From contig PARE01000027.1 of the NCBI GenBank assembly GCA_002709525.1, forward strand, positions 9,403-73,402: DNA of 64,000 nucleotides, written 5' to 3'. The position numbers and the translations under genes were made by a program. Shown here piece by piece: positions 31,249 to 54,550 of the stretch. Every line of letters begins with the position of its first letter. The stretch's first letter is position 1. Below the pieces are notes generated by a model. The model worked only from the letters and a program-made list of their open reading frames with translations. It ran no database searches and was not told the origin of the DNA. This DNA is from Magnetovibrio sp. (GTDB lineage Bacteria; Pseudomonadota; Alphaproteobacteria; Rhodospirillales; Casp-alpha2).

Positions 31249-32325
31249 CTATTCCTCCATAAATGCAGAGATTTGCATTTTACTGGTTTCTTTAGCGGTT
31301 GCGCCCCCAGCAAGCCGCTTATACCAGTCTACGGTCTCTGCGATGGCACGCTCGGACGACCACTTCGGCCGCCATCCCAATTCTAACTTGGCCTTATCTA
31401 TATTCACCTGGAGCAGTCGATGCTCAAACGGAGCATCCTCGTCGCGCTCATGAACGATCATGCCATTGCCCCAAATCTCGATCGCCCGCTCGGCGACTTG
31501 ATGCACAGTCAAGCCTTTATCTATTTCAGGGCCAAAATTCCAAGGCCCACTGTAGCGGTTTGGATCGCTCCACAATGTCGCACCTAATTGGAGATAGCCA
31601 TGAAGCGGATCCAAGACGTGTTGCCAGGGACGGGTCGCTTCGGGGTTACGCAAACGGATCGGTGTCCCATCACGGAGAGCCCGCATGCAATCGGGAATGA
31701 TGCGGTCACTGGCCCAATCGCCGCCGCCGATAACGTTTCCAGCTCGAGTGCTGGCGACACCCAAATTCGCGCGTTGTGCGAAATAGGAGTGCTGAAACGC
31801 CATAAATGCCAATTCCGCCGCTGCTTTCGAAGCACTGTAGGGGTCATGCCCGCCCAACTCGTCATTCTCCCGATAACCCCAAAGCCATTCCTTATTGCGG
31901 TAGGCCTTGTCGGAAGTGATGTAAACCAGGGCACGAACCGTATCACAACCTCGAACGGCTTCGAGAAGATTGACCGATCCACCAACATTGGTGTCAAAGG
32001 TTGTCTTCGGGTCGCCATAGGACCGTCGGACCAAAGCTTGCGCCGCCAGATGAAACACGAATTCGGGTTGGGTTTCCTGGATCACATCTTCAAGGTGACC
32101 GCGGTCGCGAATATCACCAATGCGATGATCAATGTCATTGGCCAAACCCAAGAGGTCATAGTGCGAATTGTGATATTCCGGAACCAACGCATACCCAGTA
32201 ACCTCCGCAGCCAGCTCCCGAAGCCACAAAGCAAGCCACGACCCCTTGAAACCCGTATGGCCGGTAAGCAGAACACGTTTACCCGCATAGATTTCCAACG
32301 TCTCGCTGCTCACCAGTTCCTCCAA
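31249..32325 (-). CDS. rfbG: CDP-glucose 4,6-dehydratase
   Basis: YAGKRVLLTGHTGFKGSWLALWL, ITSDKAY and YSASKAAAEL. Directly downstream of rfbF. Confidence 0.9.
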   Translation of the reverse strand: MEELVSSETLEIYAGKRVLLTGHTGFKGSWLALWLRELAAEVTGYALVPEYHNSHYDLLGLANDIDHRIGDIRDRGHLEDVIQETQPEFVFHLAAQALVRRSYGDPKTTFDTNVGGSVNLLEAVRGCDTVRALVYITSDKAYRNKEWLWGYRENDELGGHDPYSASKAAAELAFMAFQHSYFAQRANLGVASTRAGNVIGGGDWASDRIIPDCMRALRDGTPIRLRNPEATRPWQHVLDPLHGYLQLGATLWSDPNRYSGPWNFGPEIDKGLTVHQVAERAIEIWGNGMIVHERDEDAPFEHRLLQVNIDKAKLELGWRPKWSSERAIAETVDWYKRLAGGATAKETSKMQISAFMEE

Positions 32326-33092
32326 GGCGCTTCATTGCGATCCCACAAATCGTTCAACAACTTGTAATCACGATAAGTATCCATGCATTGCCAGAAACCG
32401 TCGTGCCGATAGAGCGCAAGTTGATTGTTGGCAACGATGGCTCGCATGGGCTCTTGTTCAAAAATCAGCTCCTCGTCATCGCTCAGATATTCAAAAAGCT
32501 GACGCCGACATACAAAGAACCCTCCAGAGATACGCCCGCCCGTGGCTTGCGGCTTCTCGTTAAATTCCGTCACTGCACCTGTGTAGTCAGCCTCAATCTC
32601 ACCAAATCGACCCGGTGGACGAACACCGGACACCGTCAATATTTTATCATGCGACCGATGAAAACTGATCAATGCCGAGATATCAATGTCACTAACTCCG
32701 TCGCCATAAGTCAGCATAAAATCCTCATCATTTCCGATATAATCACGCACCCGGCTGATGCGGCCACCGGTCATCGTCGGCTGGCCTGTATTTGCTAACG
32801 TAATTCGCCATCCTGACTCGTCATGATTACAGTGGTGCTCAATTTCTCGTTGGGGACCGAGCGTCACCGTTACGTCGTTCGCAGAGGTCTCGTAATTCAA
32901 AAAAAAATCTTTGATCAGGTGACCGAGATATCCGAGACAAAGAACAAAGTCCGTATGCCCGTGAGCGGCGTAACCCCTCATTATGTGCCACAGGATGGGA
33001 CGGTCGCCGATCGGGAGCATCGGCTTCGGCAGGTTCTCTGAAACGTCGCGAATACGGGTTCCTTGTCCGCCACAAAGAATTACGGTTTTCAT
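32310..33092 (-). CDS. rfbF: glucose-1-phosphate cytidylyltransferase
   Basis: MKTVILCGGQGTRIRDVSENLPKPMLPIGDRPILWHIM, with C-terminal GFWQCMDTYRD..LN.LW. Confidence 0.92.
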   Translation of the reverse strand: MKTVILCGGQGTRIRDVSENLPKPMLPIGDRPILWHIMRGYAAHGHTDFVLCLGYLGHLIKDFFLNYETSANDVTVTLGPQREIEHHCNHDESGWRITLANTGQPTMTGGRISRVRDYIGNDEDFMLTYGDGVSDIDISALISFHRSHDKILTVSGVRPPGRFGEIEADYTGAVTEFNEKPQATGGRISGGFFVCRRQLFEYLSDDEELIFEQEPMRAIVANNQLALYRHDGFWQCMDTYRDYKLLNDLWDRNEAPWRNW

Positions 33093-33140: not shown

Positions 33141-34109
33141 CTAACGCACCCCCAATTCCGGTACCGCGGCATCCTCAAGTCCATCAATAGCCGCAAGCCC
33201 CATAGCCACAATGGCTTCTTCAGCACTGCCGCCGATGTGCGGTAACGCGAGCATCCTCGGATGCCTGGCCAAGGCCAAATTCGATGGCGGTTCTTCGGCA
33301 AACACATCTAACGCCGCTCCAGCTAACCGACCATCATCCAAAGCGGCTTTCAATGCTTCCTCATCAACCAAGCCACCTCGGGCCATATTGAGAAGAAGAG
33401 CGTCTGGCTTCATCAGCGCAAGCATGTCCCCATCAAGGATATTTCGTGTGCTTTTATCAAGCGGCAAATGCAGCGAGACGATATCCGCCTCACGCATCAA
33501 GTTAGCCAAACCCACCGCTTCCACGCCCGACTGTGCGCAGAAATCGGCAAAATCCTCAATATCGTGGGCAAGGATATGACAATCAAAAGCACCTAACAAT
33601 CCGGACAGGTCCCTGCCCACATGACCGCACCCAACAATACCAACGGTCTTGCCCGTTAGTTGACGGCCCGTGATCTGTTGCCAATTGCCGCTTTGGACCT
33701 GCGCGTTCGCCGTTGGAACATGTCGCAGAAGCGCGATCATGCAAGCTATCGCCAATTCCGAGACAGCGCGCTTATTCACGCCCTTACGCCATCCTAAACG
33801 GATGTGGCGGGCATTCATGGCCGCTATATCGATCATGTCTATTCCAACGCCGAATTTGGACACAACCTCCAATTCAGGAAGAGCATCAAACACAGCCGCA
33901 TCCAACCGCTCTAGAGCCGTGATTGCGTGATCGTGACCTTTCAAAAATGCGATCAGCGCCGCTCCGAATAAGGTATGGCCGTCATCGTTAAAGGTAATTT
34001 TCGAATCGCTAAACCGGACCTGCAGCGCGGCGCGCAATTCAGAATTCCGGGAAAACGAGCGCGACGTGACCGCAATTCGTCGCGGCCGATCGTGATCAGC
34101 ATGGTTCAT
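33141..34109 (-). CDS. D-isomer-specific 2-hydroxyacid dehydrogenase (PGDH/GhrB-like)
   Basis: GKTVGIVGCGHVGRDL, LLNMARGGLVDEEAL and HIGGSAEEA. Confidence 0.8.
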   Translation of the reverse strand: MNHADHDRPRRIAVTSRSFSRNSELRAALQVRFSDSKITFNDDGHTLFGAALIAFLKGHDHAITALERLDAAVFDALPELEVVSKFGVGIDMIDIAAMNARHIRLGWRKGVNKRAVSELAIACMIALLRHVPTANAQVQSGNWQQITGRQLTGKTVGIVGCGHVGRDLSGLLGAFDCHILAHDIEDFADFCAQSGVEAVGLANLMREADIVSLHLPLDKSTRNILDGDMLALMKPDALLLNMARGGLVDEEALKAALDDGRLAGAALDVFAEEPPSNLALARHPRMLALPHIGGSAEEAIVAMGLAAIDGLEDAAVPELGVR

Positions 34110-34777
34110 AGCGCAATATTCTCCAACGCAGAAGGCACGTCAGTGAACTGACCAAGTATCCGATCAGCGCCCAAAGCCTCCATCGGAAGATGGCAGTATC
34201 CATAAGACATTAAGATCGTCCACACGCCGGCATCCTTTCCCGCCAGAACATCTGTTTCGCTGTCTCCAACAAAGGCAGCCTCGTCACACGATATATTCAT
34301 GCGCGCAAGCGTTTCGGTGACATGACGGCCGTCAGGTTTGCGGTGGCCTGTGTCGTCGGCCGTGACCACAACGGGAAACAAATCTGACAACCCCACAGCC
34401 TCCAAGGCTGGTAAGGTCGTTGCCCGCGGTTTATTCGTGCAAATGCCAAGCACGACACCTTGGTCATGCAATGCGCACAACGTCTCCTCCACGCCAGGGT
34501 AGGATTGTGTCTGATCTAAGGTCTCAGCCAGATAGGTTGGGATATACCGCTCAAGACACTGAGAAATTGATTGTTGATCGCCGTCAACGATTTGAAGGGC
34601 GCGCTCAAACATAACTTGTGCGCCTTCGCCGACACAACGCGTTATTTCGGGCGAACTCAGAGTCCGATACCCCAACGCCCCAAGAACCAGATTGACGGCC
34701 TTAGCAACGCTTGGGATGCTATCGATTAGCGTACCATCCAGATCGCAAACCAAAGCCCTCACGTTTGGGTTTGCCAA
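34106..34777 (-). CDS. HAD-IA hydrolase (phosphoglycolate-phosphatase-like sugar/acid phosphatase)
   Basis: LVCDLDGTLIDS (DxDxT), GICTNKP and VGDSETDVLAGKDAG. Confidence 0.8.
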   Translation of the reverse strand: MANPNVRALVCDLDGTLIDSIPSVAKAVNLVLGALGYRTLSSPEITRCVGEGAQVMFERALQIVDGDQQSISQCLERYIPTYLAETLDQTQSYPGVEETLCALHDQGVVLGICTNKPRATTLPALEAVGLSDLFPVVVTADDTGHRKPDGRHVTETLARMNISCDEAAFVGDSETDVLAGKDAGVWTILMSYGYCHLPMEALGADRILGQFTDVPSALENIAL

Positions 34778-35812
34778 TTAGAACGTACCTATCTTTTCGC
34801 GCCATTCGGGATCGGCATCATAAATCCGATAGACCAGCTCCATGGTCCGCAGGGCATCCTCGGATGAGCCGTTGCGGACGCTTTCATCGCTTACGATGCA
34901 ATCTGCAAACTCCGCGATCTCGTCGGCCCAAGACGGATCCTCGTGGTATTGCGTGGTATTTTCACGCGGCACACCCTGGGGGCCATCTTCCAGCCTCACG
35001 ACGGTTAGCGTCTCATTGCCGTAGCTCTTCGATCCGGACAGGATCCCACTCAGGATCAGCGCTCCTTTCTCCAGCGTCATTTCCATTCGAAACCGGTGCT
35101 GCCACTGCGTTGCCGAAGAATGTAGCATAGCGACCACTCGATTTTCCGATCGCATCAACGCATAGGCATTATCTTCGACATCAAAGTTCCAGAACTCATT
35201 CGACACGAAGCTGTGGACCGTGTGAAACTCGCCAGCGAATAGACGCATCAGGTCAGCCATATGGATCCCTTGATCCAACAATACTCCGCCGCCGGCAATC
35301 TCGCGTTTTGTTCGCCAATCGGATTGATCAAATGTGATCAGCTTCGATTTCCCATAGACGCCACGAAGATTGATCATTCGGCCCATCGCCCCAGCTTCCA
35401 CGAGTTCTAATGCATCACGAACCGACTCATGATAGCGGTGATTGAAGCCGTATTTCAGTTTCTGCCCCGGATGGTTTTTCTCGCACGCAATGACCCGACG
35501 AATATCGGAAACAGTCCGGCCAGGCGGTTTCTCACAGAATACGTGTAAGCCCCGCTCAAGACCAGCAATTGTGACTTCCGCTGCAACGTCGTTGGTTAGG
35601 CAAACAAATAATACGTCGATGTCGGTTTGCAAAAGATCTTTGTAGCTATGGAAATAACGCACACCGTCGTCAAAAACACCATCACCATCAACCGTTCTGT
35701 CGCAAACGGCGACGGTCTGAAGATTCGCAAAAGAGTCAATATGTTCGCGCCGGCGTTTGCCAACAACGCCATAGCCCGCGATGGCGACGCGGAGGGGGAC
35801 CTGCTTAGTCAT
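34778..35812 (-). CDS. Gfo/Idh/MocA-family NAD(P) oxidoreductase
   Basis: RVAIAGYGVVGKRR and the FCEKPPG (EKP) motif. Confidence 0.8.
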   Translation of the reverse strand: MTKQVPLRVAIAGYGVVGKRRREHIDSFANLQTVAVCDRTVDGDGVFDDGVRYFHSYKDLLQTDIDVLFVCLTNDVAAEVTIAGLERGLHVFCEKPPGRTVSDIRRVIACEKNHPGQKLKYGFNHRYHESVRDALELVEAGAMGRMINLRGVYGKSKLITFDQSDWRTKREIAGGGVLLDQGIHMADLMRLFAGEFHTVHSFVSNEFWNFDVEDNAYALMRSENRVVAMLHSSATQWQHRFRMEMTLEKGALILSGILSGSKSYGNETLTVVRLEDGPQGVPRENTTQYHEDPSWADEIAEFADCIVSDESVRNGSSEDALRTMELVYRIYDADPEWREKIGTF

Positions 35813-36573
35813 GGCCTCAAGTATTCGTTCGTGAGCGGGTCGGACCGCAGGATCACTTCCGCCGCCTGCAATTCCTCCGGGGTATCGACGCCGATAGTTG
35901 GACGCCCCGAGGTGACAATTTTTATAGCGTATCCGTGCTCCAGCGTCCGCAGCATATCAATTCCTTCAATGATCTCCAGTGGCGTCCGTTCAAGTTTCAA
36001 GAATATTGAAAGGAAGGTTTTTGAGAAACCGATAACACCGGTCTGCTGAAGCATATCCGAGATTGGTGTTCGCGCGCGCGATGGTATCGGCGCGCGGGAA
36101 AAGAATAAGGCTCGATCATCCAAAGCCCGGGCGACCTTAACGACGTTAGTGTCGTCTTGCATCGTCGGGTCCAAAATGGGTGAAGCAAGATTGACCACGG
36201 GTGCATCAGTATTAGAAAAGGCCGCCACTACGGGGTCTATCATGTCAGGCGCCACCAAGACCTCATCCCCTTGCACCATCAAAACCAAACCGTCGTCGGC
36301 CAAATCATCGCCAACCAATGTCACAGCTTCGGCTGTACGGTCAACAGCGCCAGGATGATCATCGCGGGTCATGACGACATTTGCGCCATGATTTTCACAG
36401 GCATCTCGGATTTCCGCATCGCAAGTAGCGATGACCGTATGGTCAAGGCTCGCTGTTGATACACAACGCATGTAAACATGAAGAACAAGTTCAAGGCCCA
36501 GAAGTTTCTCCAGCGGCTTGCCGGGAAAACGACTAGATCCCATCCGTGCCGGAATGACACATAGGTTCCTCAT
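35809..36573 (-). CDS. KdsB/KpsU-like CMP-3-deoxy-ulosonic acid cytidylyltransferase
   Basis: CVIPARMGSSRFPGKPL, VMTRDDHPGAVDRTAEA, MVQGDEVLV and NVVKVARALDDRALFFSRAPIP line up with E. coli KdsB motifs as I recall them (IIPARxxSTRLPGKPL, MTRADHQSGTERLAEV, VQGDEPMI, NAVKVV..YFSRATIP). Confidence 0.8.
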   Translation of the reverse strand: MRNLCVIPARMGSSRFPGKPLEKLLGLELVLHVYMRCVSTASLDHTVIATCDAEIRDACENHGANVVMTRDDHPGAVDRTAEAVTLVGDDLADDGLVLMVQGDEVLVAPDMIDPVVAAFSNTDAPVVNLASPILDPTMQDDTNVVKVARALDDRALFFSRAPIPSRARTPISDMLQQTGVIGFSKTFLSIFLKLERTPLEIIEGIDMLRTLEHGYAIKIVTSGRPTIGVDTPEELQAAEVILRSDPLTNEYLRP

Positions 36574-37361
36574 TACAAGCCCTCCAGTCCTGAGAGCGCT
36601 CGGCGCATGGCGATGATATCGGTCCCATAAGCGAGAAACCGATATCCTTCGCTGAGACGTTCGCGTAGCTCATCTATAACGGGAGCCACCTGATGAATGC
36701 CCGGCGCCTTTTCAGCAGCACGGCAGGCGTCCATTGTTGTGCTAAGTGCATTCTTGTAGGCTTCCATTGAAAAATCTCCCGGAGCACCCAGATCCGCTGA
36801 AAGATCGTAGGGCCCAATGAATAACGCATCTACCGCGTCGTGGGCGGCTATGGCGCCGGCCATGGCAACGCCACGGCATGTCTCGATCATAGGAACAATC
36901 AACGGTTGAAATGTTGTGCAATGGCTTTCAAAGGTGTCGCCCCATAGATTGCCCCGACCTAATCCTGTACCCCGGCAACCGCGCGGAGGGTAGAAACAGT
37001 GGCGCAGAAAGTCATCAAGCGCCGCGACATTCTCAACACACGGAATAATCAACCCCTGTACCCCACCGTCAAGCAACCGGCGCGCCAGATAGGGGTCGGC
37101 GCTCGGCATCCGTACCAACGGCGGACACCCGCGCCGTTCGGCAGCGGCAAAAATTGTCAGCGCGCTGACCTCATCGATAGGACCGTGCTCCATATCAATA
37201 ATCAGAGCGTTAAATCCGCAAGATGCCATTGCCTCGGCGATCAGAGGGGATGCGGAGGTCAGCCAAGCGGCAATAATCGGATTGCCGCGCTTCAATTCAG
37301 ATCTCAATTCGGATGACACTGTAAAACTCCCTGGATAATTTCTTGGCGCCATTGATCCCAC
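36573..37361 (-). CDS. HpcH/HpaI-family class II (pyruvate) aldolase
   Basis: IIAAWLTSASPLIAEAMASCGFNALIIDMEHGP and PLVRMPS. The likely start is the TTG at 37307, which overlaps the upstream TGA (TTGA). TAATG junction with the downstream cytidylyltransferase. Confidence 0.8.
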   Translation of the reverse strand: MGSMAPRNYPGSFTVSSELRSELKRGNPIIAAWLTSASPLIAEAMASCGFNALIIDMEHGPIDEVSALTIFAAAERRGCPPLVRMPSADPYLARRLLDGGVQGLIIPCVENVAALDDFLRHCFYPPRGCRGTGLGRGNLWGDTFESHCTTFQPLIVPMIETCRGVAMAGAIAAHDAVDALFIGPYDLSADLGAPGDFSMEAYKNALSTTMDACRAAEKAPGIHQVAPVIDELRERLSEGYRFLAYGTDIIAMRRALSGLEGL

Positions 37362-38950
37362 ATCGGCTCGGAGAAAATAAGCTCACGGTCAATGCGTACG
37401 GGTTTGGACGGTGACGCAAGGATAGCACTGAGACCATCCGACCCCGTGGTCGGGACGTCAATATTTTCGGGAGTGATGTCGATGGCAAATTGATGCGCCG
37501 GCACATAACGAAGAGCCGGGATGCCAAACACCAGCGCCTCCAATCCCACAGTACTTGCAGAGAACAGAACACGCGAAATTTTCTCATGGTCTTCAAACGC
37601 AATCTCCGTCTTTACTATACCCGGCGTTTCCGCAAACGAAGTCCGGTATATAGGATGGTCCTTGACCACGAACAGAAAACCGGCCCGCGCGGCAACTCGA
37701 ATAGCCGCAATCATCTCCCTCGCGATGGCGCGATCAAATGGCAAGGCAACAAAAACCGGCCCCGCCGGATTCCATCGAACCTTGGCGTCCCCACGCAGCC
37801 GCAAGGCACCGCCAATCGCCGAGCGCGACTCCGGCAACCCCCAAGACGTCAGTTCCCGTCGAGTCGTGGCGCCCGTAGTGAGCACTCGGTCCGGCAAACT
37901 CTTCATCCCGTCATGATTACTATCAGCAGCATAATTATACATATGCCTCCCGACGACAGAGTGCTGGTAACCAAGTGTAGAAACGTGATAACGGCGAGCA
38001 ATACGCACCAACTGACGCTCCCAGGCGTGATTTTCCCATGGCCAGATGACTTGAGATGGCCGACATGTTTGGAACCATCGGGCCAAACAGAGCTCGGTCC
38101 ACCGGGCCATGGCCCCATGTCCCGTTCCGCCCTCCAAAGCAACGGAACGTTTAACCAGCCAGGATTGTCTGCTGGTCTTAGCGATATGAGATGGACGCCA
38201 TTTGGCACCCACGAGTTTCGTCAATGCCTCCCAAGGATTGCCCCAAGCATGAAGGCTGGCATTACGCCCAGACGCCGTCAGCCGTCGTGCCTGTCGAATG
38301 CCGCCATCCACGCTGATCACCCTGAACAGAGACGAGAATCTCGACATGATGGGACCGAAATAAGCATCAACCCCGTTGACATGACTGCGGGGATGGCCGT
38401 AAACGAGAAGGCATGGTTTATCGTTGGGAAACCGCCGCCGCTGGTCTCTGAAGGCCAGTGCCGCAACAAAGGCAGATAAGGCAAACCGGGTACGGGCCAT
38501 TAGCCCGCGCAAGCGCAACTTCATCTCTACAACTGCCAAGGCCGGCGGCGTGCCAGCGGCCACGCCGCGCTTTTCGGACAGATGGCGAAACATCCAAGGA
38601 TCATCGCAAAGCACTCCAATAGAGCGGTTCTCTGCGATCCAGTGGTCCACCAGGCGCGACCATGCCATCATGCATCCCATATCGGAGACATTCGGCGCAC
38701 ATGCGGGTGCGTGGGCCAATGTCGCTCCCGAAGTAAAACTCAAGTCATGAGCCAAGGATACCCAATCTTCGCGTATGGCTTCGAACGCAGCTTCCATTTC
38801 ATCCCCTATCGGCGGGCTACTCTCCAAATAATCTAAATGCCTCCTCTCAGAACCGATAGCTACCCAATTTTGCGGTTGAGGCTTCTGGTTGACCTCGCGG
38901 GAGGTCCGAAGATGAACCAATGCCATGAGGTCAAGCCTTGCTTCGCGCAA
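37304..38950 (-). CDS. orphan 548-aa protein, GT-B-like C-terminal half (putative glycosyl/ulosonic-acid transferase)
   Basis: Long ORF with normal amino-acid composition. The C-terminal pattern VFVALPFD...FLFVVKDHPIY...LFSASTVGLEALVFGIPAL resembles the nucleotide-sugar-binding half of GT-B enzymes. I could not name a family. Confidence 0.45.
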   Translation of the reverse strand: MREARLDLMALVHLRTSREVNQKPQPQNWVAIGSERRHLDYLESSPPIGDEMEAAFEAIREDWVSLAHDLSFTSGATLAHAPACAPNVSDMGCMMAWSRLVDHWIAENRSIGVLCDDPWMFRHLSEKRGVAAGTPPALAVVEMKLRLRGLMARTRFALSAFVAALAFRDQRRRFPNDKPCLLVYGHPRSHVNGVDAYFGPIMSRFSSLFRVISVDGGIRQARRLTASGRNASLHAWGNPWEALTKLVGAKWRPSHIAKTSRQSWLVKRSVALEGGTGHGAMARWTELCLARWFQTCRPSQVIWPWENHAWERQLVRIARRYHVSTLGYQHSVVGRHMYNYAADSNHDGMKSLPDRVLTTGATTRRELTSWGLPESRSAIGGALRLRGDAKVRWNPAGPVFVALPFDRAIAREMIAAIRVAARAGFLFVVKDHPIYRTSFAETPGIVKTEIAFEDHEKISRVLFSASTVGLEALVFGIPALRYVPAHQFAIDITPENIDVPTTGSDGLSAILASPSKPVRIDRELIFSEPMWDQWRQEIIQGVLQCHPN

Positions 38951-39932
38951 ATAGCCACATGTGTGATGAAAGGCCGTTATCTGCCAGGAACTCTTGAAAC
39001 GCGGCCTTTATGGGTTCGTCACCATTCAGCAGATGTCGCACAAACGGGTCCGATGGCGGCGGCGCACCATCCTTAATGCTATTGCAAACGATATCCACAT
39101 CAAGTTTTCCAGGCGTCAGGAAGGTCGTGTCTATCAGTCCACATGCCCCCATCAAAACCTTTGCGCCATCACGACTGAGAAAGTTCAGGTGGTGCGGCGG
39201 AGAAACCGCGTTTGAACGTGCGCCAAGCACAAGGATATCGAACCCTGTGCCGCAAAGGCCGGTCACTAGAATCCGCCCCCCGGGGCGGCAAAGTGCCGCG
39301 AGACTGCGAAGAAGATCTGCCGGCGAGAATACATGCTCGATTACTTCGAAACAGGTTACCAGACTAGCCGTGCCGGCGATCGCAGGATCGTCAACCACCT
39401 CTTCGACCATACCCTCGACGGTCTGCAATCCTCTCCGTCGGCACATTGCCGCAAGATCAACGCTTGGCTCCACAGCCACATGACGCTTGCCAAGCCCTGC
39501 GCTACGGCACTCTTCGAGAAAAATCCCCGCCCCGGCACCCACGTCGATTACGATCTCACACGTTGATTGGTCTTCCGCTATCAAAGCCTGCAGGCGGTGC
39601 ACCCGATCGCGGAAAATATTCTCGCGCCTCGCTTCGGCGACGGCGGGGAAGAACTCTTCTGCCCAAAATTGCTGCGAGGGGCTATCGCGATAGAACTTGG
39701 CCAGCGCTTCAGTTGTGGGAACTGGATCGACGAACAAACTTCCACACTCAGCACAGGCGACCAGGTCAAACCCGTTCTTATCAAACGCAAAAGATTTGTT
39801 ATCGGCGCCACACCCCGGGCAATCACGTGTGATAAATTGCGCCGGATCAGGAAAGAAGATCTTTGCGTCCTCGGCACTTAACCGAAGATAGGTCGCAAGA
39901 AGCCCCGCCGGCCGAATATCAGCTTCCCGCAT
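38931..39932 (-). CDS. class I SAM-dependent methyltransferase with N-terminal Cys4 zinc ribbon
   Basis: CPGCGAD...CAECGSLFVDP, then VIDVGAGAGIFLE (motif I). Confidence 0.75.
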   Translation of the reverse strand: MREADIRPAGLLATYLRLSAEDAKIFFPDPAQFITRDCPGCGADNKSFAFDKNGFDLVACAECGSLFVDPVPTTEALAKFYRDSPSQQFWAEEFFPAVAEARRENIFRDRVHRLQALIAEDQSTCEIVIDVGAGAGIFLEECRSAGLGKRHVAVEPSVDLAAMCRRRGLQTVEGMVEEVVDDPAIAGTASLVTCFEVIEHVFSPADLLRSLAALCRPGGRILVTGLCGTGFDILVLGARSNAVSPPHHLNFLSRDGAKVLMGACGLIDTTFLTPGKLDVDIVCNSIKDGAPPPSDPFVRHLLNGDEPIKAAFQEFLADNGLSSHMWLFARSKA

Positions 39933-39991: not shown

Positions 39992-41854
39992 TCAAATCTC
40001 CGATTGGAGCGCCACATAACGACGATAGGTTTCATTGGTCAGCAACAATTCCGCATGGGTCCCCTGATTGGCGACCGTTCCAGCTTCGACGACAATAATC
40101 TTATCAGCGCTGACTATGGTCGACAGACGGTGGGCAACCACGAACAGCATCTTTTCTTTAGATATGTCCTCGAGCGCGCGTTGAATGGCGGCTTCGGACT
40201 CACTGTCGAGGGCACTGGTCGCTTCGTCGAGGATCAAAATCGACGGGTCGCGGACGATGGCTCGCGCCAATGCCACACGCTGGCGTTGCCCTGCCGAAAT
40301 CTGAGCCCCACGGCTGCCGAGAGCCGTGTCATAGCCTTCCGGCATAGCGGTGATGAAATCATGGGCATGCGCGGTACGGGCCGCTGCAATCACCTCATCG
40401 TCCGACGCCGTGAGCTTCCCGTAACGGATATTGGCGGCGACAGATCCTTCGAATACATGCGGATCCTGGGGAACAACCGCAATTTGACGACGCCACGCTG
40501 GCCCTGGAATTTCCGCAAGGTCCCTACCATCCACCATTATCCGACCACGAACCGGCACATGGTGGCCGATGAGCAGATCGATAATTGTCGACTTTCCGGC
40601 GCCCGATTCACCAACCAAGGCAAACGTCCCCGTGCCGCGAAACATGAGATTGATATCCGTTAGCGCCGGTTTTCCCACCACGTAGTCGAAGCCAACCTCC
40701 TCAAAGGAGATTTTCAAAATCTTACGCTTCTCCGCATCAGTCCTGACGCTGGATTGTTGATCTTCAGAATCGGAAAGATCAAACAGTTCCTGCAATTTGC
40801 CGACGTGCGGCAGCATGCTAAGAATCTGCAGCCAGCTGCTGCTCGCCGTCTTTGCGCGCGGAACCATGCGCACCAGGACGACGAAGAACGCCATCAAAAA
40901 CGACAGTGGAATGTCCACCCAGGCGATCGAGTAGGCGATCAAGCCGATTGCCAAAAGGGTGACCAGCGGCTCAACATAGAAGTCTGCGACAAGTCTGTTG
41001 ACCTGGATCTGAACAGCGATTCGCCGAAACGCGTCGGTCAAGCCACGGAACTCCCGGAGGTGCAAATCGGCATTGTCGAATTCACGAACAGTCTTGAACC
41101 CTGTCAGCTTGTCAACGACGTACGAATAAATGCGGTCGATCGCTGCCTTCTCATCCGCGCCTTGGCGATATCCGATCCTAAACCGAGAGGCCAATAAGAT
41201 CCCGCTGATCGCAATCATCCCACCAGCTGCCAACGATAAGTCAAAGGAGATTGCCAAGGCCATAAATAGATACAAGAAGCAAAAAACAATAGATATCAGG
41301 AAAATCGAAAGCTGCTCATAAATGGCGCCGGCCCCCTCTGCCGACGTGAACACTGTTGCCGTCAAATCACCAACCCGGGTGCGGTGAAACTGAGATAGGG
41401 GAACATGCATGGATGCTGAAAACGCCTGGTTCCGGAAATCGCGCGAGGCCGTCGCACCCAATTGCCGTCCAACGTATCCCTGCAAAGCCTGGGCGACGTA
41501 CTTTATCAGCATCAGGGTCGCCAGTGCCGCCAATAAATAATAGATGCTAAACGGTATCCCAACTAAGGCGAACAGATGGGTCAAGACCTCGGAAATTGCG
41601 CTTGGCGCCGCATTGTCTTGGAGCTGTTCGAAAACAGGAATGATGAGACCTATGCCGATCCCCTCTGTGATCCCGCCAATCAGAATGAGACCAAAATTGG
41701 CGGCGAAAAGCGCCTTGTAACGCCCCAGGTAACGGACAGAAATCCGCGCGTCACGCAAGTAGCCTTTCCCAAAACGCCGCTGATGCTTGCCATTCTGCCC
41801 TTTCACGGATGGATCTAAGGGCAAGATGAAATCAGTTTTCGTAAGCGCAATCAA
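39992..41854 (-). CDS. fused TMD-NBD ABC exporter (MsbA/PglK/Wzk-like)
   Basis: 620 aa. Six N-terminal TM segments, Walker A GESGAGKST, signature LSAGQRQRVALARA and Walker B ILILDEATSALD. TTG start overlaps the rSAM stop (TTGA). Confidence 0.9.
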   Translation of the reverse strand: MIALTKTDFILPLDPSVKGQNGKHQRRFGKGYLRDARISVRYLGRYKALFAANFGLILIGGITEGIGIGLIIPVFEQLQDNAAPSAISEVLTHLFALVGIPFSIYYLLAALATLMLIKYVAQALQGYVGRQLGATASRDFRNQAFSASMHVPLSQFHRTRVGDLTATVFTSAEGAGAIYEQLSIFLISIVFCFLYLFMALAISFDLSLAAGGMIAISGILLASRFRIGYRQGADEKAAIDRIYSYVVDKLTGFKTVREFDNADLHLREFRGLTDAFRRIAVQIQVNRLVADFYVEPLVTLLAIGLIAYSIAWVDIPLSFLMAFFVVLVRMVPRAKTASSSWLQILSMLPHVGKLQELFDLSDSEDQQSSVRTDAEKRKILKISFEEVGFDYVVGKPALTDINLMFRGTGTFALVGESGAGKSTIIDLLIGHHVPVRGRIMVDGRDLAEIPGPAWRRQIAVVPQDPHVFEGSVAANIRYGKLTASDDEVIAAARTAHAHDFITAMPEGYDTALGSRGAQISAGQRQRVALARAIVRDPSILILDEATSALDSESEAAIQRALEDISKEKMLFVVAHRLSTIVSADKIIVVEAGTVANQGTHAELLLTNETYRRYVALQSEI

Positions 41855-43359
41855 TTGGTCCCAGAGACAATCGAAAACTCATTTTCCACTGTGGACCGTA
41901 CATTGGTCTTGCTCAAGTCCATGGCAGGGAACCTATAGGATGCCAAATCCTCTGGACTTAACTTTCCTCTATTCTCAGCCAGGAACTGTTTTTGCTGCTT
42001 AAGGAAATACAAGCGCTGGTCGTCGGGGTCGTAAAGATCGTGCGCCATTTGATAGAAACGCTCAGAATACACGATGCCGGCTGCGTCGATATGGTAATAG
42101 TCATTCGTCCGCAGAAGCGTTTCATAGTCCTCGCTTTTGGGAAGCCCCAGATAGGCAAATCGATCGCAGGCCGTCGGCTTGATTTCATCGATGAAAGCGT
42201 TGGTGAACGCGATTTCCTCATCGGTTTCGCCCGGCGTGCCCATGCAGAACGTCGTATAGGTTGGCAGCTTAATATCGTGGGCGTGCTTGAAAAAGGTCCG
42301 TATCGTGTCCAAATCGAGGTCTTTCTTCTTCCGCGACAACGCGCTATCCGACCCCGCCTCAACGCCAAGATACAATCCTGTGCAACCGGATTTGCGCATT
42401 TTTTCCAGGAGGTTCCGATCTGTAATGTCAGCGCGCGCTTCACAAGCCCACGCGATATTATAATTGCGACGGATCAGAAGATCGCATACCTCTTCCAAGC
42501 GCTTATGGTTCGCGGTAAACAGGTCCTCGCGGAAATAGATACCCTTGCAGCCATATTTCTCGATGAGGCGGCCAATCTCATCGACGATACCTTCCGCTGA
42601 AAATTTGGTATATCGGCGCGACCAAATAGAGGCAACTCCACAGAACGTGCAACGGTAAGGACAAGACCGACTAGTATGCATTGTAAACACGGGATAGGCA
42701 TCCACGTCGTAAAGATCCAGCTTCCAGTTGTAGTCCTTGCCCCAAAACTTATCGTAATCAGGGAACGGTAATTCATCCAGATTTTTGATCCGACCGGTGA
42801 CAGCGTTGTCGATCTGACGCGGAAGCTTCGTGCCTCGGCACAGTTCAGCCATCACGTATTCGCCTTCGCCCTGAACCACAAAATCGACCTTTTCGGGGAT
42901 GGTCTCCGGCATCAAGGACGCTTGGGGGCCACCAGCCGCCAACGGAGCGCCAGTCAGGTTCTTTATTTCGTCGATCAAGGACAAGGCCTCATAATAACCC
43001 GGCGAATGAATATACATCCCGACGAAATCTGGCTTGAAGTCATCGATTTCCTTCGCCATGTCCTGGGGATCGAGATAGTTGTCAACAATTGTGGTCTCAA
43101 CTCCATTCTGTTCCAGAAATGTTGATATATACCCAAGCCCCAACGGCGGGCGAAGGTCACCATAGTGCAACGCCGTGGTTCCCGGCCCAGGGCGTTTGGC
43201 GGTTGTGAGCATGACGCGCCGATATTTAAGATCCCCAGTCTTCGTGTTCAGCATCGGGCCTTGCGAATGCAGTTTCGCAATTGCTTTTTCCGTTCGTTGA
43301 GCAGATGTGCTTTTCATCGTCGCGTTCCTAAATTCATAAATCGCCGTTCCCAACGGCAC
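41851..43359 (-). CDS. B12-binding-domain radical SAM enzyme (class B rSAM)
   Basis: An N-terminal B12-binding-like domain (PPLGLGYISTFLEQNGVETTIVD) followed by SRSCPYRCTFCG (CxxxCxxC). The likely start is the ATG at 43317 (MKSTSAQ). Confidence 0.85.
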   Translation of the reverse strand: MPLGTAIYEFRNATMKSTSAQRTEKAIAKLHSQGPMLNTKTGDLKYRRVMLTTAKRPGPGTTALHYGDLRPPLGLGYISTFLEQNGVETTIVDNYLDPQDMAKEIDDFKPDFVGMYIHSPGYYEALSLIDEIKNLTGAPLAAGGPQASLMPETIPEKVDFVVQGEGEYVMAELCRGTKLPRQIDNAVTGRIKNLDELPFPDYDKFWGKDYNWKLDLYDVDAYPVFTMHTSRSCPYRCTFCGVASIWSRRYTKFSAEGIVDEIGRLIEKYGCKGIYFREDLFTANHKRLEEVCDLLIRRNYNIAWACEARADITDRNLLEKMRKSGCTGLYLGVEAGSDSALSRKKKDLDLDTIRTFFKHAHDIKLPTYTTFCMGTPGETDEEIAFTNAFIDEIKPTACDRFAYLGLPKSEDYETLLRTNDYYHIDAAGIVYSERFYQMAHDLYDPDDQRLYFLKQQKQFLAENRGKLSPEDLASYRFPAMDLSKTNVRSTVENEFSIVSGTN

Positions 43360-43468: not shown

Positions 43469-44608
43469 TTAGTCATTAACGGGTTCTGCGGAAAGCATTT
43501 CGACGCTTATCGCCTGATCCGGCTCAATATCGGCAATGGCGAACTTTCCAACAACTGAGCTCATCATGGATCCAGGTAGGCCATCGGCGGGCCGTTTCAT
43601 ACCAAGCATGACGCTCTCGATACGTTCGCCCTTAGCAATCGCCTGATCAGCAACGATGCTACGTCGGGCACTATCGCGAGCCGCCTGTTCTGCTTCAATC
43701 ACTTCGATCCGAGCATCGCCCAGAACAACCTCGGCAATGCGGATGTTTTCAATCATATCCGTCAAATTCTGGGGGTTCACCGAAAAGAAGTGGCCCGATC
43801 CCGTCATCGTGCGGTCGAGCGTGTAGTGCTTCTCAATAAGGTGGGCACCAAGTGCGACTGCGAGAGCCGGGATCACCATGTGATCGTCAGGCTCCGTATG
43901 ATCAGAGAGCCCGATCACCATCCAGGGATAGCGCTCCTTCAGAGCTGAGACGCGCCGCAGATTGGCCGCGGGATTTGGCGTTGGATAACTGAGCGTGCAA
44001 GCTAGCAGGATGATATCAAAGTTTCCTGCGTCATAAAGAACGTCAATCGCAGCGTCGATCTCTTCGGTCGTAGAGCCGCCCGTAGACAGGACAATCGGCT
44101 TACCCTTCTCGGCCACATGCTTCAGCAAACGGTGATCGGGCAGATCGCACGATGCAATCTTAAACAATGGCATACCAAGATCGTTGAGCATGTCAGCGTT
44201 GTCGGTATCAAACGGGGTGGAAAACGGCAAGATACCTTTCGCGTTCGCGTCGGCGAAGATAGTCCGATATTCATCGGCACCCAGGCGATCAAGGCGCGAG
44301 TAATACTCGAGTTGGGATGTTTCCTTGCCATTCCAATAAAGGGTTGCGTTAGCTCTAACCAACTTTTCGGCCTTGTAGGTCTGAAACTTGATCGCTGATG
44401 CGCCAGCCTTAACAGCGTGATCCGTCATCTTGATCGCCGTTTCTACATCGCACATGTGATTACACGCAGCTTCCGCGACGACGTACGTATTCTCACCGTC
44501 GCCAACCATCGTTCCGTTCACATTGACTAAGCGCTTACCATCATGGCGCGCCAACATCTTGTTGATTTGTGTTTCAAATTTGTCGAAGAGTGTGTCCGCC
44601 ATTTTCAA
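43469..44608 (-). CDS. NeuB-family nonulosonic acid synthase (NeuB/PseI/LegI-like, with SAF domain)
   Basis: YVVAEAACNHMCDVETAIKMTDHAVKAGASAIKFQTY, IGLSDHT and the C-terminal SAF-like segment IAKGERIESVMLGMKRP. Confidence 0.8.
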   Translation of the reverse strand: MKMADTLFDKFETQINKMLARHDGKRLVNVNGTMVGDGENTYVVAEAACNHMCDVETAIKMTDHAVKAGASAIKFQTYKAEKLVRANATLYWNGKETSQLEYYSRLDRLGADEYRTIFADANAKGILPFSTPFDTDNADMLNDLGMPLFKIASCDLPDHRLLKHVAEKGKPIVLSTGGSTTEEIDAAIDVLYDAGNFDIILLACTLSYPTPNPAANLRRVSALKERYPWMVIGLSDHTEPDDHMVIPALAVALGAHLIEKHYTLDRTMTGSGHFFSVNPQNLTDMIENIRIAEVVLGDARIEVIEAEQAARDSARRSIVADQAIAKGERIESVMLGMKRPADGLPGSMMSSVVGKFAIADIEPDQAISVEMLSAEPVND

Positions 44609-44653: not shown

Positions 44654-45574
44654 TTAAACGGTCCAAGGGAAAGCCGTTCCCATAAAACCAACCATTGTTC
44701 GTCTTAAATGAAATAAGTCACTTTGCTCGTCATTCCTCCCATCCTCGGCACTTGGGCAGCACACGATTCCCCAATGTTTTAAATGAGAGATCACCTGCTC
44801 ATTGTAATCGGTATGTCGGCCTTCAGGATAAGAGAAATGGGTGATGGTCCGGCCCAAATTCTTCTCGAGCAACGACATGCAGCGATCCACATCCTTATGC
44901 ATCCCTTCGACGGAAAGGCGCGACAAGATGTTATGGTCGTGAGAGTGGCCCCCAATTTCGAAAAGTGGATGGCTATCAAGCTCTTGTGTTTGAGCCCAGG
45001 AAATCTTTCGGTAATTTGCCGCAGCATCGACAGACGGCGTGACGGCCGTTTCTAGTTTTAATGCAGCAAGAATGCGCTCCTTGTCAGCAGCGATGGCTTC
45101 TTTGCAGACGCCTTTGATCTTGATAGTAGCGTGAATTCTGTCGTCATCCGATTGGAGGGGAAAAGAGTTCGGAAGCCTGGAGTCGGCCGAAGACAAATCA
45201 ATCTCATTTATTTCCGATCGGTTGATACAGTCTTCTATCTCGTCGACCCAGAACATCCGATCGGATTCAACGAACCCGGTAGAGAAATAAAACATTGCCG
45301 GCACATCAAAATCATCGAGAACCGGCGCGGCAACGGCGTGGTTGTTTTCAAAACCGTCGTCGAAAGTGACCGCGAAAGCTCTCGGCGGGAAGGGTCTCCT
45401 CTCGCAAACGTGGTATCGCACCTCTTCCATCGAGAGCGGAATACCTATGCGTTTAGCTGTTGAGATCTGATCGCGGAATGTATCTATATGAATATGCTTT
45501 CCGGAAAAGTTCTCGATCCCGGGGCTCTCGGCATCGCTGACGCCGTGATAAAGAAAGATTGTCAAATCACTCAT
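44654..45574 (-). CDS. polysaccharide deacetylase (CE4)
   Basis: FAVTFDDGFENNHAVAAPVLDDFDVPAMFYF and EIGGHSHDH. I chose the ATG at 45574, which is preceded by GGAGGCAGG 8 nt upstream. The ORF track extends to 45727, overlapping the formyltransferase. Confidence 0.75.
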   Translation of the reverse strand: MSDLTIFLYHGVSDAESPGIENFSGKHIHIDTFRDQISTAKRIGIPLSMEEVRYHVCERRPFPPRAFAVTFDDGFENNHAVAAPVLDDFDVPAMFYFSTGFVESDRMFWVDEIEDCINRSEINEIDLSSADSRLPNSFPLQSDDDRIHATIKIKGVCKEAIAADKERILAALKLETAVTPSVDAAANYRKISWAQTQELDSHPLFEIGGHSHDHNILSRLSVEGMHKDVDRCMSLLEKNLGRTITHFSYPEGRHTDYNEQVISHLKHWGIVCCPSAEDGRNDEQSDLFHLRRTMVGFMGTAFPWTV

Positions 45575-45602
45575 GAAACAACCTGCCTCCTGATTGTTCC
45601 CC

Positions 45603-46403
45603 CTAGGCCGCACCCAAATGCTGGGTATAAGCATGGAACTGCTGAATCGCGCGGCGGCGCTTGAAATACGGGATGAATGAATAGTACCCAGCGGCGGCAC
45701 GGTCCCAAGGTCTCTCAATAACTTCAACCCCGGTGCTTATTTTTCTTATTAGATCCACAATCACATTCGTGGCGAAAACTGTCGTGTGATAACGAATGTG
45801 ATGCGCTTTCATCCCTGCGGTAACATCGACACGGCCCTGATAGATTATTGGGCCCGTATCAAGCTCTGGCTCAAGCCTATGCACTGTACAGCCAATATTA
45901 TCAAAGTCCTGGAAATACATGGCCCACAAATCAGAGTCCAATCCGCGATAAGGCGGCAAGAGGCCTCGGTGTATATTCACCATCATGGCGTTGGTTGCCA
46001 ACACGTTCTCGGCGATCTTTCCAGTACCGAACGAGACCACAAGGTCCGGTTTGAAGGCCTGGAGGGCAGCCAGACAATCCGCATTATTGACGCTTGGAAA
46101 CCTAACATAGGATGCATCACCCGTAAATTCTCGCGCCACGGTACCTTCAAAAAAACGTGCCTCATACGCCTCTTGATTACGGCCAAACGTTGGGTAACTC
46201 TTGACTAGGTAGGGATTATCCCAAAAAGACGCCAGGGATTTTCGCGCCTTAATCCATTTCCAATAAAGCGCCTGAAAATCCAATCCAGCCGTTTCGAGAA
46301 CCACGAAGAGCTCAGTGTGTGGTGCTAAACAATTGACAAAATAGCGGTGGTGTGTGGTGTCCGTCGTCAATACCGCGCATTTCAGCTTACTCATGAGGAC
46401 CAC
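45603..46403 (-). CDS. formyltransferase-domain protein (Fmt/ArnA-N/PurN-like)
   Basis: PDLVVSFGTGKI...MVNIHRGLLPPYRGLDSDLWAMY matches the N-x-H...LP-x-YRG formyltransferase motif. Confidence 0.75.
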   Translation of the reverse strand: MVLMSKLKCAVLTTDTTHHRYFVNCLAPHTELFVVLETAGLDFQALYWKWIKARKSLASFWDNPYLVKSYPTFGRNQEAYEARFFEGTVAREFTGDASYVRFPSVNNADCLAALQAFKPDLVVSFGTGKIAENVLATNAMMVNIHRGLLPPYRGLDSDLWAMYFQDFDNIGCTVHRLEPELDTGPIIYQGRVDVTAGMKAHHIRYHTTVFATNVIVDLIRKISTGVEVIERPWDRAAAGYYSFIPYFKRRRAIQQFHAYTQHLGAA

Positions 46404-53801: not shown

Positions 53802-54550
53802 TCCGCCCCCAGCAGGCTCAGAAGATTGGGTTTCTGTTCAAGGTACGCCATCAATTCCGGCAGGCTGAAGTCAGGCTTATCCGGATAAAGACCGGAAATT
53901 ATTTGCTCCAGGAACTGAAAATTCTTCAGGTAATTGACCGCGAAATTAATCTCGGGCCTGTGCAGTTTCTGCCAATGGCCCGTCGCCTCTATGAACCCTG
54001 TTTTGAAGCCGTTCTCTGGGACAAATAGAAACTCAGCTTCCGGAATATCGTCGCGAATATAGTCCGGAAAATCTATATAGCGTTCTGCTGCCTCAAGCTT
54101 GAATGCCTGAACCCGCACCCCCAGGGCAAACAGAGCTAGGTCCTCACGCTTCACATTATATTCGTCGGTAATCGACACAGCGCAGTCGAAATCATTTCTC
54201 GTCTGTAGTTCGACGACCTCATCAATCATTTCTGGATCCACGAGGGGATTGTCCCCAAGGATTTCCACGACCGTATCACAATCATAGGCCCGAGCTGCAC
54301 CACATAAGCGTGCCATGATATCTTGCAAAGGCCCGCGGTAACATCCGACGTCGGCGTTGGCCGCCCACTCGGCCAAGGGGTCATCGCTTCTCTCATCACT
54401 GGTCGTTACGACAATCTCATCGATACTTCTCGCGCGCCGAATGCGTTCCACCAGGTAATCAATCATTGGTCGGCCATTAATCGGCATGATGTTTTTGGCC
54501 GGCAATCGAGAAGAACTCAATCGAGCAATGATGAACGCGCCGGTGGTCAT
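53798..54550 (-). CDS. cytidylyltransferase, SpsF/COG1861-like (CMP-nonulosonic acid synthetase candidate)
   Basis: AFIIARLSSSRLPAKNIMPINGRPMIDYLVERI, IVVTTSDERSDDPL and CYRGPLQDIMAR. Confidence 0.7.
   Translation of the reverse strand: MTTGAFIIARLSSSRLPAKNIMPINGRPMIDYLVERIRRARSIDEIVVTTSDERSDDPLAEWAANADVGCYRGPLQDIMARLCGAARAYDCDTVVEILGDNPLVDPEMIDEVVELQTRNDFDCAVSITDEYNVKREDLALFALGVRVQAFKLEAAERYIDFPDYIRDDIPEAEFLFVPENGFKTGFIEATGHWQKLHRPEINFAVNYLKNFQFLEQIISGLYPDKPDFSLPELMAYLEQKPNLLSLLGAE

Follow-up and report, generated by a model that had tools for sequence, protein, structure and literature searches.

A predicted aldolase-based, synthase-independent route to a CMP-activated ulosonic acid in a glycan cluster of a marine alphaproteobacterium

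The 64,000-nucleotide stretch of Magnetovibrio sp. DNA analysed here (contig PARE01000027.1, positions 9,403 to 73,402 of the forward strand; hereafter the window) comes from a marine alphaproteobacterium of Tara Oceans origin. Within a glycan cluster of about 50 kb it carries, at 33141-37361, a cassette in which an HpcH/HpaI-family aldolase is coupled to a KdsB-like cytidylyltransferase. [quoted passage not shown] To our knowledge, all known routes to CMP-ulosonic acids use KdsA- or NeuB-type synthases that depend on phosphoenolpyruvate (PEP). Both CMP-ulosonate pathways and HpcH aldolases are well known; new is the aldolase standing in the place of KdsA or NeuB, for which we found no precedent in the searched literature. 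Full-text searches gave no published description of a cassette joining the aldolase to a KdsB-like enzyme, and the relevant NCBIfam/TIGRFAM names are generic (TIGR04425, "AroB-related putative sugar phosphate phospholyase"; TIGR04326, "surface carbohydrate biosynthesis protein").

Five minus-strand open reading frames (ORFs) were verified in this part of the window, and their domains were assigned with Pfam and NCBIfam:
36573-37361, minus strand: HpcH/HpaI-family class II (metal-dependent) 2-keto-acid aldolase (Pfam PF03328, HpcH_HpaI)
35809-36573, minus strand: KdsB-like CTP (cytidine triphosphate):ulosonate cytidylyltransferase (Pfam CTP_transf_3, 132.9 bits)
34778-35812, minus strand: Gfo/Idh/MocA NAD(P) oxidoreductase, below called GFO (Pfam GFO_IDH_MocA and its C-terminal domains)
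34106-34777, minus strand: HAD-IA (haloacid dehalogenase) phosphatase of the phosphoglycolate-phosphatase type (Pfam HAD_2, 130 bits / Hydrolase)
33141-34109, minus strand: D-2-hydroxyacid dehydrogenase resembling D-3-phosphoglycerate dehydrogenase (PGDH) (Pfam 2-Hacid_dh / 2-Hacid_dh_C, 185 bits)

The original prediction had described five tightly coupled genes with these identities, and it was right on both counts: Pfam returns all five domains, and the junctions read off the sequence are TAATG between aldolase and cytidylyltransferase, then ATGA, a TAA abutting TTG, and again ATGA. The aldolase ORF also runs into the next gene upstream (37304-38950), and its translation probably starts at a GTG at 37319, behind a GGAG, rather than at 37361. 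As the same pairing of aldolase and cytidylyltransferase is found in dozens of unrelated genomes (see below), its arrangement in the window is no chance juxtaposition.

The aldolase matches PF03328 with 104.2 bits (cut-off 25) over profile positions 4-218 of 221, and it remains below the NCBIfam equivalog cut-offs of the catabolic enzymes HpaI (131.7 versus 368.8 bits), GarL (119.5 versus 406.75) and RhmA (89.1 versus 441). Its best sequence matches in the PDB, all full length with E-values from 1e-32 to 1e-25, are HpaI, GarL, YfaU and a hydroxyketoacid aldolase that uses hydroxypyruvate. The DxEH, Arg, Glu and Asp motifs line up with the HpaI structures 7v8t and 2v5j, and D42, E44, H45, R70, E146 and D172 are invariant across 28 members of the family; with the roles that the DxEH histidine, the arginine and the Glu/Asp metal ligands have in HpaI, the enzyme looks catalytically competent. 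Homologues at 50-60% identity number in the hundreds, the close ones coming from Rhodospirillales and Magnetospirillum. The fold family and the aligned catalytic His, Arg, Glu and Asp are thus shared with HpaI, GarL, RhmA/YfaU and hydroxyketoacid aldolase (PDB 2v5j, 1dxe, 2vws, 6r62). However, those enzymes are catabolic or serve as promiscuous biocatalysts, whereas the cassette clade is found in glycan biosynthesis operons, far under their equivalog cut-offs, and has invariant residues of its own, for example a GIHQV motif.

Concerning the cytidylyltransferase, the top PDB matches are all KdsB enzymes (E about 1e-35), and NeuA is matched with an E-value of 1e-4 over 70 residues. The protein is above the cut-off of the KdsB subfamily model NF003952 (227 versus 193 bits), and the PseF model gives 32.6 bits against a cut-off of 205.7. 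It had been called a close KdsB/KpsU-like enzyme; the KdsB type stands, but the closeness was overstated, as identity to the solved KdsBs is modest and the kdsB equivalog cut-offs are not reached (TIGR00466, 147.7 versus 155.2; NF003948, 163 versus 281).

The C-terminal domain of KdsB is the Kdo-binding domain (PMC3149649). As that paper and PMC9535733 list no Kdo-contact residues, we used a conservation contrast in their place, aligning 40 aldolase-linked proteins with five solved KdsBs and counting KdsB positions along the 1vh1 sequence fragment rebuilt from the HMMER alignment. The nucleotide-binding and catalytic residues are retained (R10, R15, K19, R78, Q98-G-D-E, K143, R157, E204, E207, R213 and D235). 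In the C-terminal domain, residues invariant in the five KdsBs are not kept in the 40 aldolase-linked sequences and are replaced by others that are themselves conserved there: H181Q (95%), Y187F (97%), E210D (97%), Q211M (92%) and W216E (95%), with H181Q, Y185I, E210D, Q211M and W216E each present in at least 77-97% of the family. Further family-specific replacements change D50 to C and T125 to N. By sequence the enzyme is a member of a distinct, aldolase-linked clade, and the replaced residues form the pattern expected of a KdsB paralogue with a different sugar substrate. The set of its homologues parallels that of the aldolase, on contigs of matching length.

A search for the co-occurrence of an HpcH aldolase with a KdsB-like enzyme had been proposed as a check, and the pair proved to be widespread. 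Similarity to the aldolase was the criterion for choosing loci; scanning a single genome for each GTDB species gave 80 loci, and 84 related loci were scanned overall. Adjacency and NeuB counts were made by tblastn, simple ORF calling having erred in high-GC loci (L001, L009). Of the 82 evaluable loci, which span many phyla, 68 have a CTP_transf_3 gene no more than 3 kb from the aldolase; it directly adjoins the aldolase in 49, and in 47 of these 49 it is immediately downstream on the same strand. The two genes make up a conserved pair of glycan loci, in most cases translationally coupled. Two cytidylyltransferase subfamilies, one KdsB-like and the other PseF-like ("CTPb"), hold this same position beside the aldolase. 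The loci come from Alphaproteobacteria (SAR11 and SAR116 among them), SAR86, SAR324 and the betaproteobacterium Polynucleobacter, and further from Acidobacteria, Elusimicrobia, Planctomycetes, Verrucomicrobia (including Opitutales), Omnitrophota, Desulfobacterota-type lineages, Patescibacteria, Actinobacteria, Chloroflexi, Acetivibrio and the DPANN archaea Micrarchaeota and Woesearchaeota. The pair is also present in metagenome-assembled genomes (MAGs) of lineages that have no lipopolysaccharide (LPS) or Kdo, namely Micrarchaeota, Woesearchaeota, Patescibacteria, Actinobacteria, Chloroflexi, Dehalococcoidales, Firmicutes and Acetivibrio.

That the module holds no KdsA-like gene was confirmed by tblastn with an E. 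coli KdsA seed, itself validated with 631 bits against the E. coli KDO8P synthase (PDB 1d9e): at E <= 1e-3 neither the window nor any of the 84 scanned loci gave a KdsA-like sequence. The window does hold one NeuB-family gene, its only one, which lies about 6 kb upstream of the cassette in the same-strand run, as had been noted before. A NeuB-like gene was found in 20 related loci overall; among the 46 loci with complete 10-kb flanks, 15 have one and 31 do not. Where NeuB is present there is usually a second CTP_transf_3 gene as well, at 53798-54550 in the window and directly after NeuB in L001.

Comparison of gene order indicates what belongs to the cassette. In loci of the window type the core has four members: the GT-B (glycosyltransferase B) fold protein encoded directly upstream, the aldolase, the KdsB-like enzyme and GFO. 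Genes for a methyltransferase and an ABC (ATP-binding cassette) exporter often stand further upstream. The five genes are thus not a functional unit as first proposed, the phosphatase and the dehydrogenase being optional. Four contexts recovered via close homologues have the aldolase followed by the cytidylyltransferase, together with GFO and the dehydrogenase and either a HAD gene or genes for both a short-chain dehydrogenase/reductase (SDR) and a 3-dehydroquinate-synthase-like enzyme. In an alternative arrangement the aldolase and the KdsB-like enzyme are accompanied by the dehydrogenase, an epimerase and a second HAD type. The cultured Polynucleobacter bastaniensis (L084) has aldolase, KdsB-like enzyme, methyltransferase, GFO, a GmhA-like SIS (sugar isomerase domain) isomerase, dehydrogenase and an inositol-monophosphatase-type phosphatase. 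The smallest arrangement, of the Opitutales type (L050 and L058), is an aldolase-CTPb operon with a divergent operon for a Maf-like (MptE) protein and a family 2 glycosyltransferase (GT2). By its gene content, the aldolase-CTPb pair with an MptE-domain protein and GT2 is a putative minimal make-activate-transfer unit without a NeuB or KdsA gene. MAGs of Opitutales/Verrucomicrobia and Acetivibrio (L050, L058, L076, L080, L063 and L066) carry the aldolase and PseF-like cytidylyltransferase with the Maf-like (MptE-domain) protein and GT2 alongside.

The genes upstream of the aldolase recur beside the pair. They are, in the window:
37304-38950, minus strand: 548-aa protein without Pfam domain, predicted GT-B fold, distant TIGR04326 relative, directly upstream of the aldolase
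38931-39932, minus strand: S-adenosylmethionine (SAM)-dependent methyltransferase (Pfam Methyltransf_23/11)
39992-41854, minus strand: ABC exporter with fused transmembrane and nucleotide-binding domains (Pfam ABC_membrane and ABC_tran)
41851-43359, minus strand: B12-binding radical SAM enzyme (Pfam Radical_SAM and B12-binding), directly upstream of the ABC exporter

The first of these had no significant match in Pfam or the PDB by sequence and profile searches, and an identical 540-aa protein occurs on Tara Oceans metagenome scaffolds. On TIGR04326 it scores 45.2 bits against a cut-off of 250 (203.7 for its Polynucleobacter counterpart in L084), and we treat it as related to that family but separate from it. 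An AlphaFold2 model built from a 40-sequence alignment (pLDDT 93, pTM 0.92) was assigned a GT-B fold by Foldseek, which ranks UDP-GlcNAc 2-epimerases first, including the hydrolysing NeuC, and also returns GT1 enzymes and, at rank 20, the Kdo transferase WaaA. Invariant in the family are H424-P425 and the pair G461/E463. A non-significant profile match to the beta-Kdo transferase WbbB (E 0.7) pairs "..vkdHPm" with "..vraHPg" and "tvGlEa" with "SVGLEA"; His265 of WbbB is the HP-motif histidine, common to sialyltransferases (PMC9587256). The predicted fold and these motifs are suggestive of a CMP-ulosonate (sialyl- or Kdo-like) transferase. With the retaining beta-Kdo transferases (WbbB of GT99, KpsC of GT107) and the HP-motif sialyltransferases the protein shares the predicted GT-B-type fold, and its His-Pro after a beta-strand and downstream GxE can be aligned with those of WbbB, although the similarity to WbbB is not significant and the structural search puts the 2-epimerases first.

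A homologue of the GT-B protein is encoded in 29 of the 84 scanned loci and adjoins the aldolase in most window-type loci; the order ABC exporter, GT-B protein, aldolase is found in L005, L007, L010, L012 and L027. Homologues of the methyltransferase (50-59% identity) stand beside the cassette in L002, L011, L012, L015, L016, L017, L026 and L027. The B12-radical-SAM enzyme, possibly a C-methylase or other tailoring enzyme of the same glycan, recurs in 15 related loci.

Of the remaining cassette genes, GFO has a homologue with 57-70% identity in most related loci, also in those whose aldolase is at 35-39%. In the PDB it is matched best by myo-inositol 2-dehydrogenase, 1,5-anhydrofructose reductase, aldose-aldose oxidoreductase and glucose-fructose oxidoreductase. 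We regard it as the core partner of the pair in window-type loci, with the tailoring of the sugar acid or the preparation of the acceptor as candidate roles. The HAD protein is best matched by phosphoglycolate-phosphatase NCBIfam models, at 158-166 bits, below their cut-offs. The top 15 or so PDB matches of the dehydrogenase are all D-3-phosphoglycerate dehydrogenases (E about 1e-43), but it scores 204 against the cut-off of 454 on the PGDH model TIGR01327 and does not reach the SerA equivalog.

Together with either the HAD, or with an SDR and an AroB-like enzyme, the dehydrogenase is an optional sub-module. It is accompanied by the HAD in the window, L002, L011, L014 and L024, and by the SDR and AroB-like enzyme in L001, L004, L007, L013, L017, L021, L065, L072 and L082; in the clearest loci the two alternatives fill the same slot between GFO and dehydrogenase, and only in L023 do HAD and AroB-like gene occur together. 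The HAD/dehydrogenase sub-module is missing from L006, L008, L010, L026 and L027. The enzyme that characterizes the second alternative is absent from the window:
L004:12226-13290 and L001:12261-13331, for example: AroB-related enzyme of sister loci (TIGR04425, 483 bits)

This enzyme scores 258 bits on the aroB model and retains the GGK, KN, Glu and His-x3-His/His ligands of AroB for metal and phosphate, as well as the Lys and Arg in ELK...GLR..LN.GHT.GHA; the motifs aligned cleanly with the approximate E. coli AroB sequence used as reference. With its metal, phosphate and putative carboxylate ligands kept, the protein would fit a phosphorylated ulosonate intermediate. In these ligands the TIGR04425 enzyme resembles AroB and the sugar-phosphate cyclases, but unlike AroB it stands outside the shikimate pathway, in glycan operons beside an SDR and a PGDH-like dehydrogenase. 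Its presence with the SDR in the HAD slot hints that the sugar acid may have deoxy or carbocyclic variants. In L065, L072, L079 and L082, compared with the window, GFO, SDR, AroB-like enzyme and dehydrogenase are 53-70% identical across phyla where the aldolase and cytidylyltransferase are at 35-48%; the accessory sub-module either moves horizontally by itself or is under much stronger constraint.

From these data a pathway can be proposed. The class II aldolase would join a 2-keto-acid donor (pyruvate, possibly hydroxypyruvate) to an aldose or aldose phosphate, giving a 4-hydroxy-2-keto-acid, and this step would replace the PEP-dependent one of KdsA or NeuB. The PGDH-like dehydrogenase and the HAD could supply hydroxypyruvate from 3-phosphoglycerate. 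If the acceptor is phosphorylated, the HAD would remove the phosphate, and in other genomes the AroB-like phospholyase with the SDR would act differently at that point. The specialised KdsB paralogue would convert the free acid and CTP into the CMP-sugar, whose acid the upstream GT-B protein would transfer to a glycan handled by the adjacent ABC exporter, and GFO, the methyltransferase and the PGDH-like dehydrogenase might tailor the sugar or prepare precursors. In this scheme we infer which way the aldolase works and on what substrates, how the steps are ordered, what the accessory enzymes do and what the product is. One candidate product is a 7-carbon acid like 3-deoxy-D-arabino-heptulosonate 7-phosphate (DAHP): from erythrose 4-phosphate a pyruvate aldolase would give 3-deoxy-hept-2-ulosonate 7-phosphate, and a phosphatase in the same slot would then yield free heptulosonic acid. 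Other acceptors are equally possible, and a bicyclic product resembling bradyrhizose, or else a carbocyclic one, is speculation.

The proposed route can be compared with two known ones. As in the CMP-Kdo pathway (KdsD, KdsA, KdsC, KdsB), the last enzyme is a KdsB-family cytidylyltransferase acting on a 2-ulosonic acid and a phosphatase of the HAD superfamily is present; a SIS-domain sugar-phosphate isomerase is found in related loci, there GmhA-like and not KdsD. However, a non-homologous class II pyruvate aldolase stands where that pathway has the PEP-dependent KdsA, the phosphatase is HAD-IA phosphoglycolate-phosphatase-like rather than of the KdsC type, and the sugar pocket of the cytidylyltransferase differs. 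The nonulosonic acid pathways (NeuC/NeuB/NeuA and those for pseudaminic and legionaminic acid) follow the same logic, with an aldose, condensation with a C3 keto acid, CMP activation, and transfer by an enzyme of the Maf type or a GT-B enzyme with an HP motif; some related loci even share with them a PseF-like cytidylyltransferase and a Maf-like MptE-domain protein. They differ from the cassette in using a PEP-dependent NeuB-type synthase and not a pyruvate aldolase, and no set of aminotransferase and acetyltransferase genes is tied to the cassette.

Several points weigh against an aldolase-based route. Aldol equilibria and the known physiology of HpcH enzymes (HpaI, GarL, RhmA) are catabolic. 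Many of the loci are MAG contigs, so that mis-binning could inflate the argument from lineages without LPS, and the choice of loci by aldolase similarity makes their co-occurrence no unbiased genome-wide statistic. The place of the dehydrogenase-HAD pair in the route is uncertain because the pair is optional. Some functional readings are assumptions: that H181, Y185, Y187, E210, Q211 and W216 contact Kdo in KdsB, and that the Lys and Arg of AroB bind the carboxylate of DAHP. The match of the GT-B protein to WbbB lacks statistical significance, and with 2-epimerases as its top structural matches the protein could be a NeuC-like hydrolase releasing a free aldose. Finally, GFO, dehydrogenase and phosphatase could by themselves make a 2-ulosonic acid from an aldose phosphate, through oxidation at C1 and C2 and dephosphorylation, which would leave the aldolase without a role.

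This last point leads to an alternative that we judge unlikely, in which GFO oxidises C1 of an aldose phosphate to give the phospho-aldonate, the PGDH/PdxB-like dehydrogenase oxidises C2 to give the 2-keto acid, the HAD takes off the phosphate or the AroB-like enzyme with the SDR processes it, and the KdsB-like enzyme activates the acid; the aldolase would have a side role, in precursor supply or cleavage, or in epimerising by retro-aldol and aldol reactions. Here every enzyme would do chemistry typical of its family: the relatives of GFO include aldose 1-oxidoreductases, the dehydrogenase is closest to enzymes acting on phosphorylated 2-hydroxy acids, the AroB-like enzyme retains carboxylate and phosphate ligands, and in several loci GmhA-like SIS isomerases and phosphatases accompany GFO and dehydrogenase. 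However, it is the aldolase, not GFO or the dehydrogenase, that is the invariant neighbour of the cytidylyltransferase. L050, L058 and L064 have the aldolase and CTPb without a homologue of GFO or dehydrogenase, and the core loci L006, L008, L010, L026 and L027 have GFO without dehydrogenase or phosphatase. Because it leaves an invariant aldolase without a role and because core loci lack the dehydrogenase, this is not the best explanation. It is distinctly unlikely that the cytidylyltransferase is an extra CMP-Kdo synthetase of the KpsU type fed by housekeeping Kdo, with the aldolase and oxidoreductases serving unrelated tailoring or metabolism. As a Gram-negative alphaproteobacterium the host presumably makes Kdo, the best sequence matches are all CMP-Kdo synthetases and the protein passes one NCBIfam model of a KdsB subfamily; but it is under the kdsB equivalog cut-off, the pair also occurs in lineages without LPS, and the strict order of aldolase then cytidylyltransferase would be left unexplained. 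The replacement, throughout the family, of Kdo-domain residues invariant in five solved KdsBs is a systematic difference that likewise argues against a plain KpsU-type enzyme.

The NeuB gene about 6 kb away in the same strand run, the NeuB-like genes in 20 related loci and the ability of PseF-like CTPb to adjoin either NeuB or the aldolase could instead mean that the KdsB-like enzyme activates the product of the NeuB synthase, or that the cassette decorates it (with a glyceroyl or hydroxy-acid group made via dehydrogenase and HAD). We consider this very unlikely, as a NeuB-like gene is lacking in 31 of the 46 full loci, NeuB where present usually comes with a second CTP_transf_3 gene, and the PseF model gives only 33 bits on the KdsB-like protein; a role as the nonulosonate cytidylyltransferase of the NeuB module was rejected, the CTP_transf_3 gene at 53798-54550 being available and most loci having no NeuB. 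That the aldolase, oxidoreductases and phosphatase form a catabolic island for a sugar acid, embedded in the glycan cluster by chance, is hardly conceivable. The characterised HpcH-family members among the best matches are catabolic, but the transporter, kinase or dehydratase genes typical of sugar-acid catabolism are lacking at the locus. The idea was rejected on the glycan genes that flank both sides on the same strand and on the coupling to cytidylyltransferase and GT-B protein, conserved in dozens of genomes. What stands of the proposed aldolase-based CMP-ulosonic acid route is supported by the conserved coupled pair, the absence of KdsA, the majority of loci without NeuB, the lineages without LPS and the altered sugar pocket; the five-gene unit and the close kinship to KdsB/KpsU had to be corrected.

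The cassette is embedded in a run, from 12011 to 63920, that consists almost entirely of minus-strand glycan biosynthesis genes. It includes a nonulosonic acid module, of which two genes have been mentioned:
43469-44608, minus strand: NeuB-family synthase, the sole NeuB-family gene of the window (Pfam, NCBIfam)
53798-54550, minus strand: second CTP_transf_3 protein, 250 aa, matched by the family model over its N-terminal half alone (residues 7-129)

Companions of NeuB are a DegT aminotransferase, a WbuX amidotransferase, an amidase, a formyltransferase, a carbamoyltransferase and the second CTP_transf_3 gene, whose divergent product is presumably the cytidylyltransferase of this module; a second Gfo/Idh/MocA gene (52812-53801) is next after it. 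Within the module there is also a 453-aa protein (46404-47765, minus strand) whose GT2 domain, at the N-terminus, is fused to a weakly CTP_transf_3/PseF-like segment at the C-terminus (residues about 254-368). A polysaccharide deacetylase (44654-45727, minus strand) and a formyltransferase (45603-46403, minus strand) overlap by about 125 nt as listed, and probably at least one start is mis-placed; the equivalent neighbourhood of L004 has a YdjC-formyltransferase fusion.

Directly downstream of the cassette is a glucose-1-phosphate cytidylyltransferase (32310-33092, minus strand), above its NCBIfam equivalog cut-off, and next comes a CDP-glucose 4,6-dehydratase-like gene (31249-32325, minus strand); with a TylC3-type sugar C-methyltransferase at 22504-23757 (minus strand), these sequences indicate a putative branched CDP-deoxysugar pathway immediately downstream. 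Two carbamoyltransferase genes, one at 38-1498 on the plus strand, cut at the window start, and one at 57000-58805 on the minus strand, suggest carbamoylated sugars. Other glycan genes of the window encode GT2, GT4 and WecA-type transferases and Wzy- and ArnT-like membrane proteins. An O-antigen-ligase-like gene lies at 2943-4226, GDP-mannose dehydratase and GDP-fucose-synthase-like genes at 5639-7711, and the housekeeping gene purH (AICAR, 5-aminoimidazole-4-carboxamide ribonucleotide, transformylase/IMP cyclohydrolase; 10393-11967, minus strand) stands between two glycan gene blocks.

CMP-activated ulosonic acids, among them Kdo and the sialic, pseudaminic and legionaminic acids, play a central part in LPS, in capsules, in the glycosylation of flagellin and in immune recognition, and an aldolase-based route would add a new biosynthetic logic for them. 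Such a route would account for the thousands of glycan-locus genes annotated, probably wrongly, as "KdsB" and "HpaI/RhmA/GarL", and would predict unrecognised acidic surface sugars on abundant marine and freshwater bacteria and on lineages without LPS. The cassette aldolases could also act as biocatalysts making ulosonic acids from pyruvate. Since Magnetospirillum aberrantis and Polynucleobacter bastaniensis are cultured carriers, the idea is directly testable. More tentatively, and with some doubt, we suggest that bacteria and DPANN archaea may have a widespread family of pathways, spanning phyla and independent of PEP, in which an HpcH aldolase builds ulosonic acids other than Kdo and sialic acids for dedicated cytidylyltransferases, and swappable sub-modules, either a phosphatase or the AroB-like phospholyase with the SDR, give hydroxy, deoxy or even carbocyclic variants. 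Such a family, if real, would mean a whole unrecognised class of acidic surface sugars.

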